DNA of 64,000 nt from Escherichia phage BYEP01: the sequence record OR757453.1. One strand, 5' to 3'. Shown piece by piece: positions 9,476 to 64,000 of this stretch. The translations under genes were made by a program, and so were the position numbers. The notes below the pieces were generated by a model that saw nothing but the letters and a program-made list of their open reading frames with translations, ran no database searches and was not told where the DNA came from. The number at the start of each line of letters is the position of its first letter. Position 1 is the first letter of the stretch.

Positions 9476-9508
9476 GTTTACTTCCTCGGTTAGTTGTGGT
9501 ATTATAAC
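9476..9508 (+). promoter_or_regulatory. early promoter
   Basis: GTTTAC ... GGTATTATAAC. Confidence 0.5.
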
Positions 9509-9532
9509 ACCATAGCTACTGAGGATAATAAA

Positions 9533-9664
9533 ATGAAAATTTATCGTGTTGAATCATCGTTTAGTATTCTTGATTATGAAGATGGTGTTGAACTTCTGAA
9601 TGTTGTTCATGCAGGTGATTTTAGTGTAGTACCTCGTAGTGCAGTGGTAGCTATTTTGAATTAA
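9533..9664 (+). CDS. hypothetical small protein
   Basis: 43 aa ORF with GAGGATAAT RBS. Confidence 0.3.
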   Translation: MKIYRVESSFSILDYEDGVELLNVVHAGDFSVVPRSAVVAILN

Positions 9665-11873: not shown

Positions 11874-11924
11874 GCTTTATGATTACCGGAGTATAATATT
11901 CCCGAAACCAAACGAGGATAAGTG

Positions 11925-13742
11925 ATGATTAAGAATGAAATTAAAATTCTGAGCGATATTGAACATATCAAAAAGCGTAGCGGCATGTACATTGGCTCTT
12001 CAGCTAATGAAATGCATGAGCGCTTTCTGTTTGGTAAATGGGAAAGTGTTCAGTATGTACCTGGTCTTGTTAAGCTTATTGATGAAATTATCGATAACTC
12101 AGTAGATGAAGGTATTCGTACTAAGTTTAAATTCGCAAATAAAATTAATGTTACCATTAAAAATAATCAGGTAACAGTTGAAGATAACGGTCGTGGTATT
12201 CCACAAGCGATGGTTAAAACACCTACCGGTGAAGAAATTCCTGGTCCTGTTGCTGCCTGGACTATTCCAAAAGCAGGTGGTAACTTTGGTGATGATAAAG
12301 AACGCGTCACCGGCGGTATGAATGGTGTTGGTTCTAGTTTAACTAACATTTTTTCTGTGATGTTTGTCGGTGAAACTGGCGACGGTCAAAATAATATTGT
12401 AGTTCGTTGTTCAAATGGCATGGAAAATAAATCATGGGAAACTATTCCTGGAAAATGGAAAGGAACTCGCGTTACTTTCATTCCTGATTTTATGTCATTT
12501 GAAACTAATGAGCTATCTCAGGTTTATCTTGACATTACACTGGATCGTCTCCAGACACTTGCAGTAGTTTATCCTGATATTCAATTTACCTTTAATGGTA
12601 AAAAGGTTCAGGGTAATTTTAAGAAATATGCACGTCAATATGATGAACATGCTATCGTTCAAGAACAAGAAAACTGTTCTATTGCGGTTGGTCGTTCGCC
12701 GGATGGTTTTCGTCAATTAACATACGTCAATAACATTCATACTAAGAATGGTGGCCATCACATTGACTGTGTTATGGATGATATTTGTGAAGACCTTATT
12801 CCACAAATCAAACGTAAATTTAAAATTGACGTAACTAAAGCACGTGTTAAAGAATGTTTGACTATCGTTATGTTTGTTCGTGATATGAAAAACATGCGAT
12901 TTGATTCTCAAACTAAAGAACGACTTACTTCTCCTTTTGGTGAAATTCGTAGTCATATTCAGCTTGATGCTAAAAAGATTTCACGTGCTATTTTAAATAA
13001 TGAAGCAATTTTAATGCCAATTATTGAAGCTGCCTTGGCTCGTAAATTGGCGGCAGAAAAAGCAGCAGAAACTAAAGCAGCTAAAAAGGCTTCTAAAGCT
13101 AAGGTTCATAAACATATTAAAGCGAATCTTTGCGGTAAAGATGCTGATACTACTCTTTTCTTGACTGAGGGTGATTCTGCTATCGGATATCTTATTGATG
13201 TTCGTGATAAAGAACTTCATGGTGGTTATCCATTGCGCGGTAAAGTTCTTAATAGCTGGGGTATGTCATATGCTGATATGCTTAAAAACAAAGAACTGTT
13301 TGATATTTGCGCAATCACTGGATTAGTTCTTGGCGAAAAGGCAGAGAATACGAACTATCGTAATATTGCAATTATGACTGACGCAGATCACGACGGTCTT
13401 GGAAGTATCTATCCGGCTTTGCTTGCTTTCTTTAGTAATTGGCCTGAATTGTTTGAACAAGGACGTATTCGCTTTGTTAAAACGCCTGTAATTATTGCAC
13501 AAATTGGCAAAACTCAAAAATGGTTTTATACTGTAGCTGAGTATGAAGAAGCTAAAGATGCTCTACCTAAGCATAGTATTCGATACATCAAGGGATTGGG
13601 CTCACTTCAGCGGGATGAATATAAAGAAATGATTCAAAACCCTGTGTACGACGTAGTTAAACTTCCTGAAAATTGGAAAGAACTATTTGAAATGCTCATG
13701 GGTAACGACCCTGAACTCCGTAAAGATTGGATGCTAGGATAA
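11925..13742 (+). CDS. 39: DNA topoisomerase II large subunit gp39, contiguous (no gene 60 split)
   Basis: 605 aa continuous ORF; GHKL ATPase N-terminus; Toprim-like region with DHDG; no internal stop or coding gap. Confidence 0.9.
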   Translation: MIKNEIKILSDIEHIKKRSGMYIGSSANEMHERFLFGKWESVQYVPGLVKLIDEIIDNSVDEGIRTKFKFANKINVTIKNNQVTVEDNGRGIPQAMVKTPTGEEIPGPVAAWTIPKAGGNFGDDKERVTGGMNGVGSSLTNIFSVMFVGETGDGQNNIVVRCSNGMENKSWETIPGKWKGTRVTFIPDFMSFETNELSQVYLDITLDRLQTLAVVYPDIQFTFNGKKVQGNFKKYARQYDEHAIVQEQENCSIAVGRSPDGFRQLTYVNNIHTKNGGHHIDCVMDDICEDLIPQIKRKFKIDVTKARVKECLTIVMFVRDMKNMRFDSQTKERLTSPFGEIRSHIQLDAKKISRAILNNEAILMPIIEAALARKLAAEKAAETKAAKKASKAKVHKHIKANLCGKDADTTLFLTEGDSAIGYLIDVRDKELHGGYPLRGKVLNSWGMSYADMLKNKELFDICAITGLVLGEKAENTNYRNIAIMTDADHDGLGSIYPALLAFFSNWPELFEQGRIRFVKTPVIIAQIGKTQKWFYTVAEYEEAKDALPKHSIRYIKGLGSLQRDEYKEMIQNPVYDVVKLPENWKELFEMLMGNDPELRKDWMLG

Positions 13743-14539
13743 TGAATTATCGTAAAATTTATGATAAACTTATCGCTGCGGCTAAAAACCGCAGCACTAT
13801 TCCTAATTATACTGAAACTCACCATATTTTGCCTAAATCTATGGGCGGGAGTAATGCTAAATCAAATCTAGTTAAAATGACCCCTAGAGAGCATTTTATC
13901 GCCCATTTATTGCTTTATAAAATTCATAAGAACCGTTCTATGCTTATGGCTATTAGAGCTTTTTACATGGGAGCTAGAAATTCTAGAGATTATGATTGGC
14001 TTAAACAAGAATTCTCTAAAGAGCACTCTAGATTTATGAAAGAATGGATTGCTAAAAATGGCAACCCATTTAAAGGTAAAAAACATACTAAAGCAACAAG
14101 AGAATTAATGTCACATATTGCTTCACAACGTATAGGCGAATTAAATCCATTTTATGGTAAAACTCATACGCAAGAAGCAATAGATAAAATAATACAGGCT
14201 AACAAGTTATCTTGGGAGAATGGGCGAAAAGCACCTGTAAAAACAAAAGAACACCAGGATAAAATAACTAAATCAAGAATGGAAACATTTAAAACAAAAG
14301 GATTTAAACCATACACTCCTAGGTCAGAAGAAACTAAAGCTAAGACTAGAGAGTTGTATAAATCTAAATATGAAAGAAGGCCTATAAGAATCACAAGTGT
14401 AAAAACAGGTGAAACTATTGATTTTAACTATCTTTATGAATTAAGGGAGTATTTAGATATAGGGTCTTCTAATATATTGAAAGCATTAAATAATCCTAAC
14501 AGAACCTGCAAAGGTTATAAAATGTGTTGGATGTCCTAA
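13742..14539 (+). CDS. HNH homing endonuclease (MobA-like, with NUMOD-like repeats)
   Basis: 265 aa; HNH core ETHHILPKSMGGSNAKSNLVKMTPREH; ATG overlaps the gene 39 stop (TAATG). Confidence 0.75.
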   Translation: MNYRKIYDKLIAAAKNRSTIPNYTETHHILPKSMGGSNAKSNLVKMTPREHFIAHLLLYKIHKNRSMLMAIRAFYMGARNSRDYDWLKQEFSKEHSRFMKEWIAKNGNPFKGKKHTKATRELMSHIASQRIGELNPFYGKTHTQEAIDKIIQANKLSWENGRKAPVKTKEHQDKITKSRMETFKTKGFKPYTPRSEETKAKTRELYKSKYERRPIRITSVKTGETIDFNYLYELREYLDIGSSNILKALNNPNRTCKGYKMCWMS

Positions 14540-14924: not shown

Positions 14925-17102
14925 ATGATTATCACCACTGAAAAAGAAACAATTCTTGGTAATGGTTCTAAATCAAAAGCATTTAGCATCACAGCATCTC
15001 CTAAAGTATTTAAAATTCTATCATCTGATTTGTATACAAACAAGATTCGCGCAGTAGTCCGTGAATTGATTACTAATATGATTGATGCCCATGCTCTTAA
15101 TGGAAATCCTGAAAAATTTATCATTCAAGTTCCTGGACGTTTAGATCCACGATTTGTTTGCCGAGATTTTGGTCCGGGTATGAGTGATTTTGATATTCAG
15201 GGTGATGATAATTCTCCTGGTTTGTATAATTCATACTTCAGTTCATCTAAGGCTGAATCTAACGATTTCATTGGCGGATTTGGTTTAGGTTCTAAATCTC
15301 CGTTTAGTTATACTGATACATTTAGTATTACTTCATATCATAAAGGTGAAATTCGTGGTTATGTAGCTTACATGGATGGTGACGGTCCACAGATTAAACC
15401 TACATTCGTAAAAGAAATGGGTCCAAATGATAAAACTGGTATTGAAATCGTAGTTCCAGTTGAAGAAAAAGACTTTAGAAACTTTGCTTATGAAGTTTCT
15501 TATATCATGCGACCATTCAAAGATTTGGCTATCATTAATGGTCTTGACCGCGAAATTGATTATTTTCCGGATTTTGATGACTATTACGGTGTAAATCCAG
15601 AAAGATACTGGCCAGATCGCGGTGGATTATATGCTATCTATGGTGGTATTGTTTATCCTATCGATGGCGTTATTAGAGACCGTAACTGGTTAAGCATCCG
15701 CAATGAAGTGAATTACATTAAGTTTCCAATGGGTTCACTTGATATTGCCCCATCGCGTGAGGCTCTTTCATTAGATGATCGTACTCGTAAAAATATTATT
15801 GAGCGTGTTAAAGAGCTCAGTGAGCAGGCATTTAATGAAGATGTAAAACGATTTAAAGAATCTACATCTCCTCGTCATACATATCGCGAATTAATGAAGA
15901 TGGGATATTCTGCTCGAGATTATATGATTAGTAATTCAGTCAAATTCACGACTAAAAATCTGTCATATAAGAAGATGCAAAGCATGTTTGAACCTGACAG
16001 TAAGTTATGCAATGCAGGGGTTGTGTATGAAGTAAATCTTGACCCTCGACTGAAACGCATTAAGCAAAGCCATGAAACTTCAGCCGTTGCATCAAGTTAT
16101 CGTCTGTTTGGTATTAATACGACAAAAATTAATATTGTTATTGATAATACTAAAAATCGTGTTAATATTGTCCGTGGATTAGCACGTGCATTAGATGATA
16201 GCGAATTTAATAACACCTTAAATATTCATCACAATGAGCGGCTTCTGTTTATTAATCCAGAAGTAGAATCGCAGATTGATTTGCTTCCTGATATTATGGC
16301 AATGTTTGAAAGTGATGAAGTTAACATTCATTATTTGTCAGAAATCGAAGCTTTAGTTAAAAGTTATATTCCAAAGGCAGTAAAAAGTACAGCTCCTCGT
16401 CCTAAAACTGCTACTGCATTTAAGTTTGAAATTAAAGACGGGCGCTGGGAAAAAGAGGAATTGTTTACACTTACGTCAGAAGCAGATGAAATTACTGGTT
16501 ATGTAGCATACATGCATCGTTCTGATATTTTCTCTATGGATGGTACTACATCGCTTTGTCATCCATCTACGAATATTTTGATTCGTATGGCTAATCTTAT
16601 TGGCATTAATGAATTTTATGTTATTCGTCCACTTTTACAGAAAAAGGTAAAAGAACTTGGTCAGTGCCAATGTATTTTTGAAACTTTGCGTGATTTATAT
16701 GTAGATGCTTTTGATGATGTAGATTATGATAAGTATGTAGGTTATTCAAGTTCAGCTAAACGATATATTGATAAAATTATCAAGTATCCTGAGTTAGATT
16801 TTATGATGAAGTACTTCAGTGTAGATGAAGTTTCTGAAGAATATACACGACTCGCTAATATGGTTAGTTCATTACAGGGTGTATATTTTAATGGTGGAAA
16901 AGGTACCATTGGTCATGACATCTGGACAGTAACTAATCTTTTTGAAACACTATCATATAATGCTTCAAAAAACAGTGATAAAATGGTTGCTGAGTTTACC
17001 AAGAAATTCCGTATTGTTTCCGACTTCATCGGTTATCGCAATTCTTTAAGTGATGATGAAGTTTCCCAAATCGCTAAAACTATGAAGGCCCTTGCGGCCT
17101 AA
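14925..17102 (+). CDS. rIIA: rIIA protein
   Basis: 725 aa; GHKL-type ATPase-like N-terminus; length matches T4 rIIA. Confidence 0.9.
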
Positions 17103-17113
17103 TAAGGAAAATT

Positions 17114-18053
17114 ATGTACAATATTAAATGCCTGACCAAAAACGAACAAGCTGAAATTGTCAAACTGTATTCAAGTGGTAATTACACCCAACAGGAATTG
17201 GCTGATTGGCAAGGTGTATCGGTGGACACAATCCGTCGTGTTTTGAAAAATGCTGAAGAAGCTGAGCGCTCCAAAGTTACCATTAGCGGTGACATTACAG
17301 TTACAGTTAAGAGCGATGCAGCTATTGCTCCAGTTGCTAAATCTGACATTATTTGGAATGCATCTAAAAAATTCATTTCAATTACTGTTGACGGTGTAAC
17401 TTATAACGCAACTCCTAATACTCATTCAAACTTCCAAGAAATTCTTAATCTGCTTGTTGCAGATAAATTGGAAGAAGCGGCGCAAAAAATTAACGTTCGT
17501 CGCGCTGTTGAAAAATATATTTCCGGTGATGTTCGAATTGAAGGTGGAAGCTTGTTCTATCAAAATATTGAATTGCGGTCTGGTTTAGTTGATCGTATTC
17601 TCGATTCGATGGAAAAAGGTGAAAACTTTGAATTTTATTTTCCGTTCCTGGAAAATCTGTTAGAAAACCCAAGCCAAAAAGCGGTAATCTCGACTCTTTG
17701 ATTTCTTGGTAGCAAACGATATTGAAATTACAGAAGACGGTTACTTCTATGCTTGGAAAGTAGTTCGCAGTAATTACTTTGACTGCCATTCAAATACTTT
17801 TGATAACAGTCCTGGTAAAGTAGTTAAAATGCCACGTACTCGTGTGAATGACGATGATACACAAACTTGTTCTCGTGGTCTGCATGTGTGTTCTAAATCT
17901 TATATTCGTCACTTTGGCAGTTCAACCAGCCGAGTTGTAAAAGTTAAAGTACATCCTCGCGATGTAGTATCAATTCCGATTGATTACAACGATGCTAAAA
18001 TGCGTACCTGCCAATACGAAGTAGTTGAAGACGTTACTGAACAATTCAAATAA
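17114..18053 (+). pseudogene. rIIB: rIIB interrupted by an apparent +1 frameshift (ORFs 17114..17701 and 17706..18053)
   Basis: 195 aa and 115 aa ORFs in adjacent frames; joining the frames near 17686 gives exactly 312 aa, the T4 rIIB length. Confidence 0.7.
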
Positions 18054-18081: not shown

Positions 18082-18276
18082 ATGTTAGGTTATCAAGCAC
18101 GAGTAAAAGAAGAATACGATCAATTAATGCTCAAAATTAATGCACTGAGCAAATTTTTAGAAAGCACAAAGTTTCTAACGATTAATGAAGTCGAGCAAGA
18201 ATTACTGCTTTCACAGTTCATCTCAATGAAATCTTACGCAGATTGTTTAGAGAAAAGAATTGCACAATTCAAATAA
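18082..18276 (+). CDS. hypothetical protein
   Basis: 64 aa ORF flanked by two near-identical hairpins. Confidence 0.4.
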   Translation: MLGYQARVKEEYDQLMLKINALSKFLESTKFLTINEVEQELLLSQFISMKSYADCLEKRIAQFK

Positions 18277-18362: not shown

Positions 18363-18920
18363 ATGCAGAAAACGAATCCGGGTTTACAGAGACTATTTCA
18401 GATTCCGACATTTACCCTATCGAACAGTGACTTGACTAGTGAAATGAAGGTCAAAATTGCTGATACAGCAAGATACTCTTTAAAACAAAATCCAAATCAG
18501 GATAAAGCAGAAGTTATCGAAAGATGCCGTATCGCGGTGTACGCAGAGTTTTTTGTAGCAGATTGGCTAAGCGGGTATGTTAACAAAGGCCAAGAGGATG
18601 TTAATGACCCGTATACATACGCATGGGATGTATTGGCGCATCCAAGATATTGCGGGCTTCGTGTAGAAGTTAAGACACACCAAACTGACTCACGTTGGAT
18701 TTCGGTAACAACCGGATGCAGCGGAGAGTATCCATACGGTTCTGGAATAAATCTAGGGCCCATTCTGAATCACCAAGTCGCTGACTGTATAATTATATTC
18801 AACACTAAAGAAATTCATCCAGGTGTCATCCAGTACACTCCGAAGTTCATCGGTGATAGAGAAGACCTTCGTAAGGTTGTAAGAAAAAGCAACTACAACG
18901 GATGGTATCTTTCCATTTAA
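18363..18920 (+). CDS. denB: endonuclease IV DenB
   Basis: 185 aa; length and position match T4 denB. Confidence 0.75.
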   Translation: MQKTNPGLQRLFQIPTFTLSNSDLTSEMKVKIADTARYSLKQNPNQDKAEVIERCRIAVYAEFFVADWLSGYVNKGQEDVNDPYTYAWDVLAHPRYCGLRVEVKTHQTDSRWISVTTGCSGEYPYGSGINLGPILNHQVADCIIIFNTKEIHPGVIQYTPKFIGDREDLRKVVRKSNYNGWYLSI

Positions 18921-38119: not shown

Positions 38120-39265
38120 ATGTTTAAACGTAAATCTACTGCTGAACTCGCTGCACAAATGGCTAAACTGGCTGGAAATAAAGGTGGTTTTTCTTCTGAA
38201 GATAAAGGCGAGTGGAAACTGAAACTCGATAATGCGGGTAACGGTCAAGCAGTAATTCGTTTTCTTCCGTCTAAAAATGATGAACAAGCACCATTCGCAC
38301 TTCTTGTAAATCACGGTTTCAAGAAAAATGGTAAATGGTATATTGAAACATGCTCATCTACCTACGGTGATTACGATTCTTGCCCAGTATGTCAGTACAT
38401 CAGTAAAAATGATTTGTATAACACTGACAATAAAGAGTACGGTCTTGTTAAACGTAAAACTTCTTACTGGGCTAACATTCTTGTAGTAAAAGACCCAGCT
38501 GCTCCAGAAAATGAAGGTAAAGTATTTAAATACCGTTTCGGTAAGAAAATCTGGGATAAAATCAATGCAATGATTGCAGTTGATGTTGAAATGGGTGAAA
38601 CTCCGGTTGATGTAACTTGTCCGTGGGAAGGTGCTAACTTTGTACTGAAAGTTAAACAGGTTTCTGGATTTAGTAACTACGATGAATCTAAATTCCTGAA
38701 TCAATCTGCGATTCCAAACATTGACGATAAATCTTTCCAGAAAGAACTGTTCGAACAAATGGTTGACCTTTCTGAAATGACTTCTAAAGATAAATTCAAA
38801 TCATTTGAAGAACTGAGCACTAAATTCGGTCAAGTCATGGGAACTGCTGTGATGGGCGGTGCCGCTGCAACTGCTGCTAAGAAAGCTGATAAAGTTGCTG
38901 ATGATTTGGATGCATTCAATGTTGATGACTTCAAAACAAAAACTGAAGATGATTTTATGAGCTCAAGCTCTGGCAGTTCATCTAGTGCTGATGACACGGA
39001 CCTGGCAATACTGCTGATAGTTAAAGAGGAAAATAATATGGCTAAAGTTGATATTGACATCGTTGATTTTGAATATATTGAAGAAATTATTCGTAATCGT
39101 TATCCTGAACTTAGTATCACAAGCGTGCAAGATTCTAAGTTTTGGAGTATTCAAATCGTTATTGAAGGTCCTCTTGAAGACCTCACCCGTTTTATGGCTA
39201 ATGAATATTGTGATGGCATGGATTCTGAAGACGCAGAATTTTACATGGGACTGATTGAACAATAA
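38120..39265 (+). CDS. 32: ssDNA-binding protein gp32; ORF has no stop at the expected end and continues in frame into the next ORF
   Basis: first 295 aa match T4 gp32; after SSADDTDL the frame reads [11 protein letters not shown] and continues through an RBS and ATG at 39038. Confidence 0.8.
39038..39265 (+). CDS. hypothetical acidic protein (frd.3 position), in frame with gene 32
   Basis: 75 aa from ATG preceded by AAAGAGGAAAAT. Confidence 0.45.
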
Positions 39266-62540: not shown

Positions 62541-62926
62541 ATGGAACTTATTACATAATTATTTGACGGCGCTTCGGCGCCGGTTGTTAACTTAAATCCT
62601 AAGCATAAAATACCACAAATTTTTGCTATTCAAGCCGGCGAAGAAAGCGTGCTTCCTGGATTTAGATTTTGTACATACACCTCTGGCGGTGATACAGATA
62701 AAACGTTAAACCAGGCGACAAAATGATGCATATCGTAATGATAGGTGTTAATGAGAAACTATCATTAGTTAAGCTTAAAAACTTGGGTGGAAATCCAATT
62801 GGTGTCATTAATGCTGTTTTTGATACTGCTCTTCAAACAATGAAACAGTATAAAATCGACGCATGCCTATTACGCGTACTAAAAAGTTCAAAATGTAGTT
62901 TACAAGTCCCTCGTGTTGTGTTATAG
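62541..62926 (+). pseudogene. decayed partial duplicate of the alt 5' region
   Basis: DNA homology to alt codons 1-130; nonsense at codon 6 (MELIT*), at least one frameshift; residual 67-aa ORF 62723..62926. Confidence 0.7.
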
Positions 62927-63321: not shown

Positions 63322-64000
63322 TCATAGTATACTAATATTTGAAATGCTTCCTGAGGTTCCTCCTAGTCTACTAAGTCGTGAAAGCGAATTAGATAGTCCA
63401 GTAACACCTCCACTATTTCCGAGAACGCTTTGAATACCATTTATAGCAGCAGATTCAAGCCATTCAAGCGCAGCTTGCCTATCAACTGCTCCAGCCTGCA
63501 TCACTCTGTACGCAAAAGTAACATCAAATGTAGTTATTTGGTTATCTCCATCATATGATAGCTCAGGAGCGCTCACTGATATTGGAATGCATCCGGTGAA
63601 CATCACCGCAGTATGAGGCAATCCATTGCGAGAATGAAGATTAACCTGAATATCTGCCTCGACATCTTGTGGCAAAGCACGTAATCCAGTTACTGGGTCT
63701 TGAACGGAGTTAACCCAGTCTTGCATTGCACGATAGTTACAAGCTTCTGAATCCATTCTAAATGAAATAACCAAAGGGTCTAATTCTCTCCCAGTTATAC
63801 GAATATTAGGAGAATTATAGTTCCAGTCAGTTTCATAGGATAATCTATTCTCTGGCATTTTTACAGAATATATCATCAATCCAGATGAGTTATATGCCAT
63901 GTTAAAGAAGTCAATTAAATATGTACCAACCGTAAATGAGCCTAATAAACTTTGAACTGTGCGTTGACTCATGGCACCAATAAGATATTTACTGACTCCT
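63322..64000 (-). CDS. baseplate / tail-tube family structural protein (gp54/gp48-like), 5' end beyond window
   Basis: frame remains open upstream of Met at 63972 to the window edge; C-terminal region resembles the tail-tube fold ending; Gly/Ser-rich tail. Confidence 0.45.
   Translation of the reverse strand, partial: GVSKYLIGAMSQRTVQSLLGSFTVGTYLIDFFNMAYNSSGLMIYSVKMPENRLSYETDWNYNSPNIRITGRELDPLVISFRMDSEACNYRAMQDWVNSVQDPVTGLRALPQDVEADIQVNLHSRNGLPHTAVMFTGCIPISVSAPELSYDGDNQITTFDVTFAYRVMQAGAVDRQAALEWLESAAINGIQSVLGNSGGVTGLSNSLSRLSRLGGTSGSISNISIL

Follow-up and report, generated by a model that had tools for sequence, protein, structure and literature searches.

One extra A splits rIIB in the deposited genome of the T4-like phage BYEP01

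Results

rIIB is present as two open reading frames

The window analysed here, 64,000 nucleotides of Escherichia phage BYEP01 (sequence record OR757453.1), carries rIIA (14925–17102), rIIB (17114–18053), denB.1 (18082–18276) and denB (18363–18920), in the same order as in phages IME339 and sutha. The rIIA gene, on the plus strand directly 5′ of rIIB, is intact and encodes 725 aa. The rIIB gene of this T4-like phage, on the same strand, is split in two pieces by one extra A; it is 940 nt long, compared with 939 nt normally, and is described here as a disrupted copy, either a pseudogene or a null allele.

The 5′ open reading frame (ORF; 17114–17701, plus strand, 195 aa, stop codon TGA at 17699–17701) comprises RIIB residues 1–191 followed by four out-of-frame residues, ISTL, and then the stop. 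After a gap of 4 nt, the 3′ ORF (17706–18053, plus strand, 115 aa, TTG start) runs in the +1 frame and comprises residues 198–312, the conserved C-terminal domain. A first-pass annotation, made from the sequence alone, had described rIIB as two adjacent-frame ORFs separated by 4 nt and had proposed that a frameshift at 17681–17692 cuts RIIB at 195 aa. Both ORFs are present as described, and the frameshift is a one-base insertion of A at 17686/17687, inside the proposed interval.

Alignment to reference rIIB genes, which the annotation had suggested as a check, placed the insertion precisely. Aligned from end to end with IME339 rIIB, the disrupted gene is 99.5% identical in DNA and shows one gap column; when Nami and EcNP1 are added, the alignment of the four sequences again contains just one gap column (column 573), where the window reads GGTAATC at 17683–17689 and the three relatives read GGTATC. 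The extra A therefore lies in an AA pair (17686–17687, plus strand) that is a single A in relatives; either of the two could be the inserted base, and they are indistinguishable. As a deterministic feature of the sequence, the insertion raises no issue of chance. As the first-pass annotation had also pointed out, the site is no long homopolymer, being an AA dinucleotide only. Positions 17675–17701 of the window read CAA AAA GCG GTA ATC TCG ACT CTT TGA. In the native (downstream) frame the inserted A makes a TAA at 17685–17687 (plus strand), so the downstream rIIB frame is open only from 17688.

Deleting one A in silico gave a product reading ...QKAVSRLFDFLVANDIEI..., which was exactly 312 aa, as had been predicted for the removal of one base. 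This is the normal, T4-type length of RIIB (cluster P0002, 312 aa, has 534 members). The gene in the window differs from that of IME339 by four substitutions, all of them synonymous, so the restored RIIB is identical to IME339 RIIB.

The frame change interrupts the most conserved RIIB block

Both ORFs belong to one family profile: the 5′ ORF matched phrog_609, ‘RIIB lysis inhibitor’, over profile positions 751–928 (E = 6e-43) and the 3′ ORF over the adjoining positions 935–1049 (E = 1.5e-56). The Pfam family PF26926 (Phage_T4_rIIB) appears only among the precomputed annotations of protein P0001; the local Pfam-A copy returned weak helix-turn-helix families alone for restored RIIB. PHROG 36818, ‘RIIB’, with a profile length of 163, covers the last residues of the 5′ ORF together with the 3′ ORF, that is, C-terminal RIIB.

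We aligned 35 full-length RIIB homologues of 291–340 aa, which are 54–99% identical to the T4-type sequence. The break sits in the most conserved block of this alignment, PFLENLLENPSxKAVxRLFDFLVANDIEIT, in which A190, V191, R193, L194, F195, D196, F197 and L198 are invariant; the 5′ ORF instead reads AV, then ISTL, then stop. The gene thus has the whole-length homology of the RIIB family and its position between rIIA and denB.1/denB. The family has a single ORF of about 300–340 aa where the window has ORFs of 195 and 115 aa. Because both the single ORF and the invariant block are lost, we regard this rIIB as a disrupted copy and not as a functional member of the family.

An AlphaFold model of RIIB (m911dc2bc9c45; P0002, 97% identical to the 5′ ORF of the window; built on the 35-sequence alignment) had a mean pLDDT of 75. 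It consists of an N-terminal helix-turn-helix (residues 9–50), a disordered linker (52–76), a mixed middle domain (79–200) and a C-terminal beta-rich domain (about 211–306), the last having the highest confidence and lying in the best-predicted part of the model (201–312). The frameshift position falls inside a predicted helix, 188–200. In Foldseek searches against the PDB, only the N-terminal helix-turn-helix gave high-probability matches, to DeoR-type DNA-binding domains; residues 79–312 gave nothing at E ≤ 0.001, and a sequence search of the PDB with RIIB gave no match.

On this sequence and model evidence, the 195-aa product, which would lack the whole conserved C-terminal domain, almost certainly represents a null allele. 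In classical work, mutations of rII were located all along the B cistron past its dispensable start, which fits such a reading. Complementation between the two RIIB fragments would be unlikely, since the break is predicted to be inside a conserved helix. We also considered separate expression of the C-terminal ORF and set it aside as improbable: the TTG at 17706 has neither a purine-rich element nor a Shine–Dalgarno sequence upstream.

The inserted form is private among the records compared

A 943-nt rIIB stretch matched 624 phage records; among the top matches listed, those spanning the entire query have alignments of 942 nt and carry the annotation rIIB. The first-pass annotation would have taken a two-ORF structure shared by close relatives as refuting its reading. 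At this site, neither that structure nor the extra A was found in any of the 519 phage records that match a 55-nt probe across it (a phage collection in which BYEP01 itself is absent): no match reached 99% identity, and the best was 54/55 with one gap. An exact-pattern search for the inserted form likewise returned no copy from IMG/VR, JGI metagenome contigs or GTDB genome contigs. For the wider background, 25-kb pieces of the window had best matches that were 94–96% identical, to mosaic Tequatrovirus genomes.

As a control for this uniqueness test, we used a +2 difference in gene 54 relative to phage fPS-2, which the same approach recognised as a common allele: the short form was at 100% in nine of the ten records listed, among them HY03, SG1, F1, JEP6, FN and BYEP02, and 11 records were at 99% or above. 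The control shows that the uniqueness test discriminates. In the window, gene 54 (63322–63345, minus strand) ends 14 codons earlier than in fPS-2 through this 2-nt difference; judged by its distribution among relatives, the short end is best taken as a natural allele. A templated origin of the rIIB insertion from a nearby repeat was also considered and set aside, there being no second exact copy of CGGTAATCTC, with near-matches at chance level.

The lesion is present in the deposited genome. In a protein search, the 5′ ORF was 100% identical over 100% of its length to WPK17760.1, a "hypothetical protein" of Escherichia phage BYEP01, and the 3′ ORF is exactly WPK17761.1, also a "hypothetical protein" of BYEP01; the two ORFs are therefore the deposited proteins, and the frameshift is in the BYEP01 genome as submitted.

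Because r plaques of rII mutants appear on E. coli B-type hosts only, the small plaques reported for BYEP01, which lend no support to its being an r mutant, do not speak against it either. The phage was isolated from swine wastewater on E. coli BYEC01, was plaque-purified for at least three rounds and was sequenced on an Illumina NovaSeq (PE150) with assembly in SPAdes 3.15.5 (PMC12951479). On its own host it makes small (0.4 mm), clear plaques, with a latent period lasting 10 min and a burst of about 70, and the paper mentions neither rII nor plating on a lysogen (PMC12951479).

A genuine insertion or an artefact of sequencing

The first-pass annotation had left the choice between an rII frameshift allele and a base-calling error. 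That pair of explanations is upheld; the further evidence is not decisive, but it leads us to favour a genuine one-base insertion in the sequenced BYEP01 stock as the probable one. The competing explanation, which we consider unlikely although it deserves weight, is that rIIB of the phage is intact, encoding 312 aa, and that the extra A came from base calling, from a minority variant or from consensus building. The change is, after all, a single base that is unique among 519 relatives, and an intact gene with one error in it would present the same picture, the only other differences from IME339 being synonymous. The published genome size of 169,509 bp (PMC12951479), compared with 169,215 bp on the record, hints in addition at some post-processing.

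The nature of the site argues against such an error. Illumina sequencing with SPAdes assembly has a low rate of indel errors, and a consensus made in this way rarely contains an indel at a non-homopolymer site such as this AA. A homopolymer-type error would sit in a run of at least four identical bases, would recur several times in a genome and would come from an error-prone platform; none of these features is seen here. When ORFs of at least 60 aa from sutha and fPS-2 were compared with the window by tblastn, no other annotated gene in the 64 kb had a frame break; the other items flagged were ORFs that are antisense or intergenic, a region whose sequence is replaced in BYEP01 and a stretch that fPS-2 annotates as a pseudogene. 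A priori, one random error would be unlikely to strike just the 939 nt that rIIB occupies, the site of the one frame break among the annotated genes tested. We therefore rejected a generally error-prone assembly: no further annotated gene is broken, and the gene 54 difference is of the natural kind described above.

The assembly does contain one other private lesion. A deletion of 137 bp sets the window apart from fPS-2 and LH2: gene 32 (single-stranded DNA-binding protein) loses its stop and the seven codons before it, its hairpin terminator and the early promoter of frd.3 are gone, and gp32 is joined in frame to Frd.3 as a 381-aa fusion (38120–39265, junction at about 39001–39005). No match listed among 495 records has the deletion; each of them aligns as two segments separated by about 387 nt. 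Either an essential protein has, surprisingly, tolerated a real fusion or the assembly is at fault, and the lesion can be read on both sides of the present question. A second odd private lesion could signal an imperfect assembly; against that, a deletion of 137 bp is not a type of base-calling error. Base calling cannot account for this second private lesion, which shows that the rIIB insertion is not the only private change in the stock, or in the assembly at the least.

A point against a real mutation is that, among spontaneous frameshifts, the duplication of one base away from a run is not the most frequent type. If genuine, as we think probable, the rIIB lesion would be recent, because the rest of the gene has no decay, its substitutions being synonymous and its restored protein identical to that of a relative.

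Other features of the window

Several further differences from related phages were seen. Ahead of rIIA.1, a 270-aa ORF (13727–14539) contains an HNH-like sequence and a NUMOD3 motif (E = 5e-9); it overlaps the gene for the 606-aa topoisomerase large subunit (11922–13742) at the end of that gene. It is absent at the equivalent place in phage sutha and, from its motifs and placement, is probably a mobile homing-endonuclease insertion. At about 9494–9661 of the window, two ORFs that follow dexA in sutha (L004 10531–11031 and 11034–11573) match by their outer ends only, and the greater part of each seems to have been lost or replaced. A short Alt-like ORF 3′ of alt (62649–62923) matches the window in two different frames and is labelled a ‘putative pseudogene’ in fPS-2.

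The premature stop resembles a slippery stop but lacks its stimulators

The premature stop is the TGA of CTT TGA (17696–17701, plus strand), which follows a Leu codon (CUU), is followed by T (17702) and has the same hexamer as prfB. We therefore asked how well the site would support translational rescue, in which a +1 slip at CUU-UGA would yield a 312-aa RIIB with ISTL in place of SRLF, and the allele would be leaky and not null. CUU UGA is exactly the slippery-stop hexamer of prfB, which encodes RF2 (PMC10798248). Restoration of the frame is confined to 17688–17699, because the TAA at 17685–17687 and the TGA at 17699–17701 bound the region, and within these 12 nt CUU_U (17696–17699) is the sole place at which +1 re-pairing could occur. 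The slip product would be exactly 312 aa, with the junction peptide AVISTLDFLVANDIEITEDGYFYAWK.

The remaining features of the site make rescue very improbable. In prfB, substitutions in the Shine–Dalgarno element "nearly eliminate" frameshifting, and a C after UGA weakens the stop (PMC10798248). The rIIB site has no Shine–Dalgarno sequence 3 nt upstream; within the 20 nt upstream, the strongest anti-Shine–Dalgarno pairing has an energy of −3.3 kcal/mol and its centre at GGU (17683–17685), 10 nt away, compared with −10.7 for prfB. The stop context is UGA U and not the weakening UGA C, the two-frame arrangement has no counterpart among the 519 relatives, and the product would still replace the invariant residues R193, L194 and F195. 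Of the features of an RF2-type site, the slippery CUU_U with UGA is present, and the Shine–Dalgarno element, the weak stop context and conservation are missing; because three of the four defining features fail, we conclude that this is not a programmed frameshift site. The BYEP01 site therefore has the CUU UGA hexamer and the +1 direction of shift in common with prfB but, unlike prfB, is without a Shine–Dalgarno stimulator, has a strong UGA-U stop, is unconserved and exists only through the insertion. Transcriptional slippage in the upstream A5 run was considered separately and rejected, since translation of a transcript lacking an A from that run would meet the TAA at 17685–17687.

Discussion

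We propose that an A was duplicated in codon 192 of rIIB and was fixed in the plaque-purified BYEP01 stock. Translation would leave the native frame after V191, read four wrong codons (ISTL) and end at TGA, giving a truncated RIIB that would keep the N-terminal helix-turn-helix and the middle domain and lose the entire conserved C-terminal beta-rich domain, together with half of a conserved helix. BYEP01 would then be expected to behave as an rIIB null, growing normally where Rex-type exclusion is lacking and failing on lambda lysogens, and it may escape defence systems that are triggered by RIIB.

rIIB is the best-known mutational target in phage genetics, and a single-base frameshift is the textbook mutation. 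T4 rIIB frameshift mutants are reportedly those of Benzer and of Crick, Barnett, Brenner and Watts-Tobin (1961), the triplet-code work being said to have used the dispensable N-terminal B1 segment. The BYEP01 lesion resembles the classical mutants in its gene, in being a single-base addition and in meeting an out-of-frame stop (a ‘barrier’) a few codons on, and the expected growth on a permissive host with exclusion by lambda RexAB would be the same. It differs in belonging to the deposited genome of a fresh environmental isolate and not to a selected laboratory mutant, and in lying in the conserved distal codon 192, not at an A-run hotspot, whereas the triplet-code mutants lay in the N-terminal B1 segment. 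It is a known kind of mutation in a known gene, and no new biology is involved.

More recent work places rIIB among the genes that both counter and provoke host defences. T4 lines that have lost rII cease to grow on a lambda lysogen, and plasmid-borne rIIA and rIIB partly rescue them (PMC9391042). RIIB is also the trigger of a bacterial (Lysobacter) gasdermin/CARD defence, and all six of six T6 escapers of that defence had a frameshift or stop in rIIB and were RexAB-sensitive (bioRxiv 10.1101/2023.05.28.542683). Those escapers resemble BYEP01 in being viable with a loss-of-function frameshift or stop, in their case confined to rIIB; their mutations, however, lay near the start of the gene and were obtained by a defined selection, and no such selection is known for BYEP01. 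rIIB is thus dispensable except against exclusion systems.

Broken rIIB genes also recur in public assemblies. In GenBank, rIIB is split in vB_Eco_EH2 (157 + 147 aa) and T4_ev240 (140 + 166 aa), and two more phages, together with several anonymous contigs, have a broken or shortened gene. Five Logan assemblies from different runs (L007–L011) have −1 frameshifts in rIIB 6–23 nt upstream of the BYEP01 site, in an A4 run in L007, L009 and L010 and in an A5 run in L008 and L011 (corresponding to 17664–17667 and 17676–17680 of the window). Some of the Logan contigs have further rIIB lesions, and rIIA is fragmented in L007. These Logan splits are either real pseudogenes or homopolymer errors. Like BYEP01, all of these named genomes and contigs have two or truncated rIIB ORFs, with the breaks elsewhere, and the BYEP01 insertion differs from the Logan breaks in being private and at a non-run site. 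rIIB knock-outs are viable and recurrent and, because broken rIIB genes recur publicly in this way, a private, recent knock-out in a plaque-purified isolate is unremarkable.

Such a knock-out may have been carried through the purification bottleneck by neutral drift, or it may have been selected. We can imagine more specific histories, in which BYEP01 is leaky through an accidental shifty stop with partial protection against Rex, or in which the knock-out was selected by an RIIB-triggered sensor, and regard them as a long shot. Were the former true, low-level +1 slippage at CUU-UGA would be a case of a natural frameshift mutation rescued by an accidental shifty stop; were the latter true, an abortive-infection sensor of the gasdermin/CARD kind would have acted in nature or on the isolation host.

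For the record itself, the two adjacent "hypothetical proteins" of BYEP01 in GenBank are the halves of rIIB, and the annotation should say so. BYEP01 is a proposed therapeutic phage and, if the lesion is real, RexAB lysogens of the lambda type should exclude it, and it might evade RIIB-sensing defences; exclusion and evasion both bear on host range. Together with the other broken rIIB genes in public assemblies, BYEP01 illustrates the repeated loss of an anti-defence gene.
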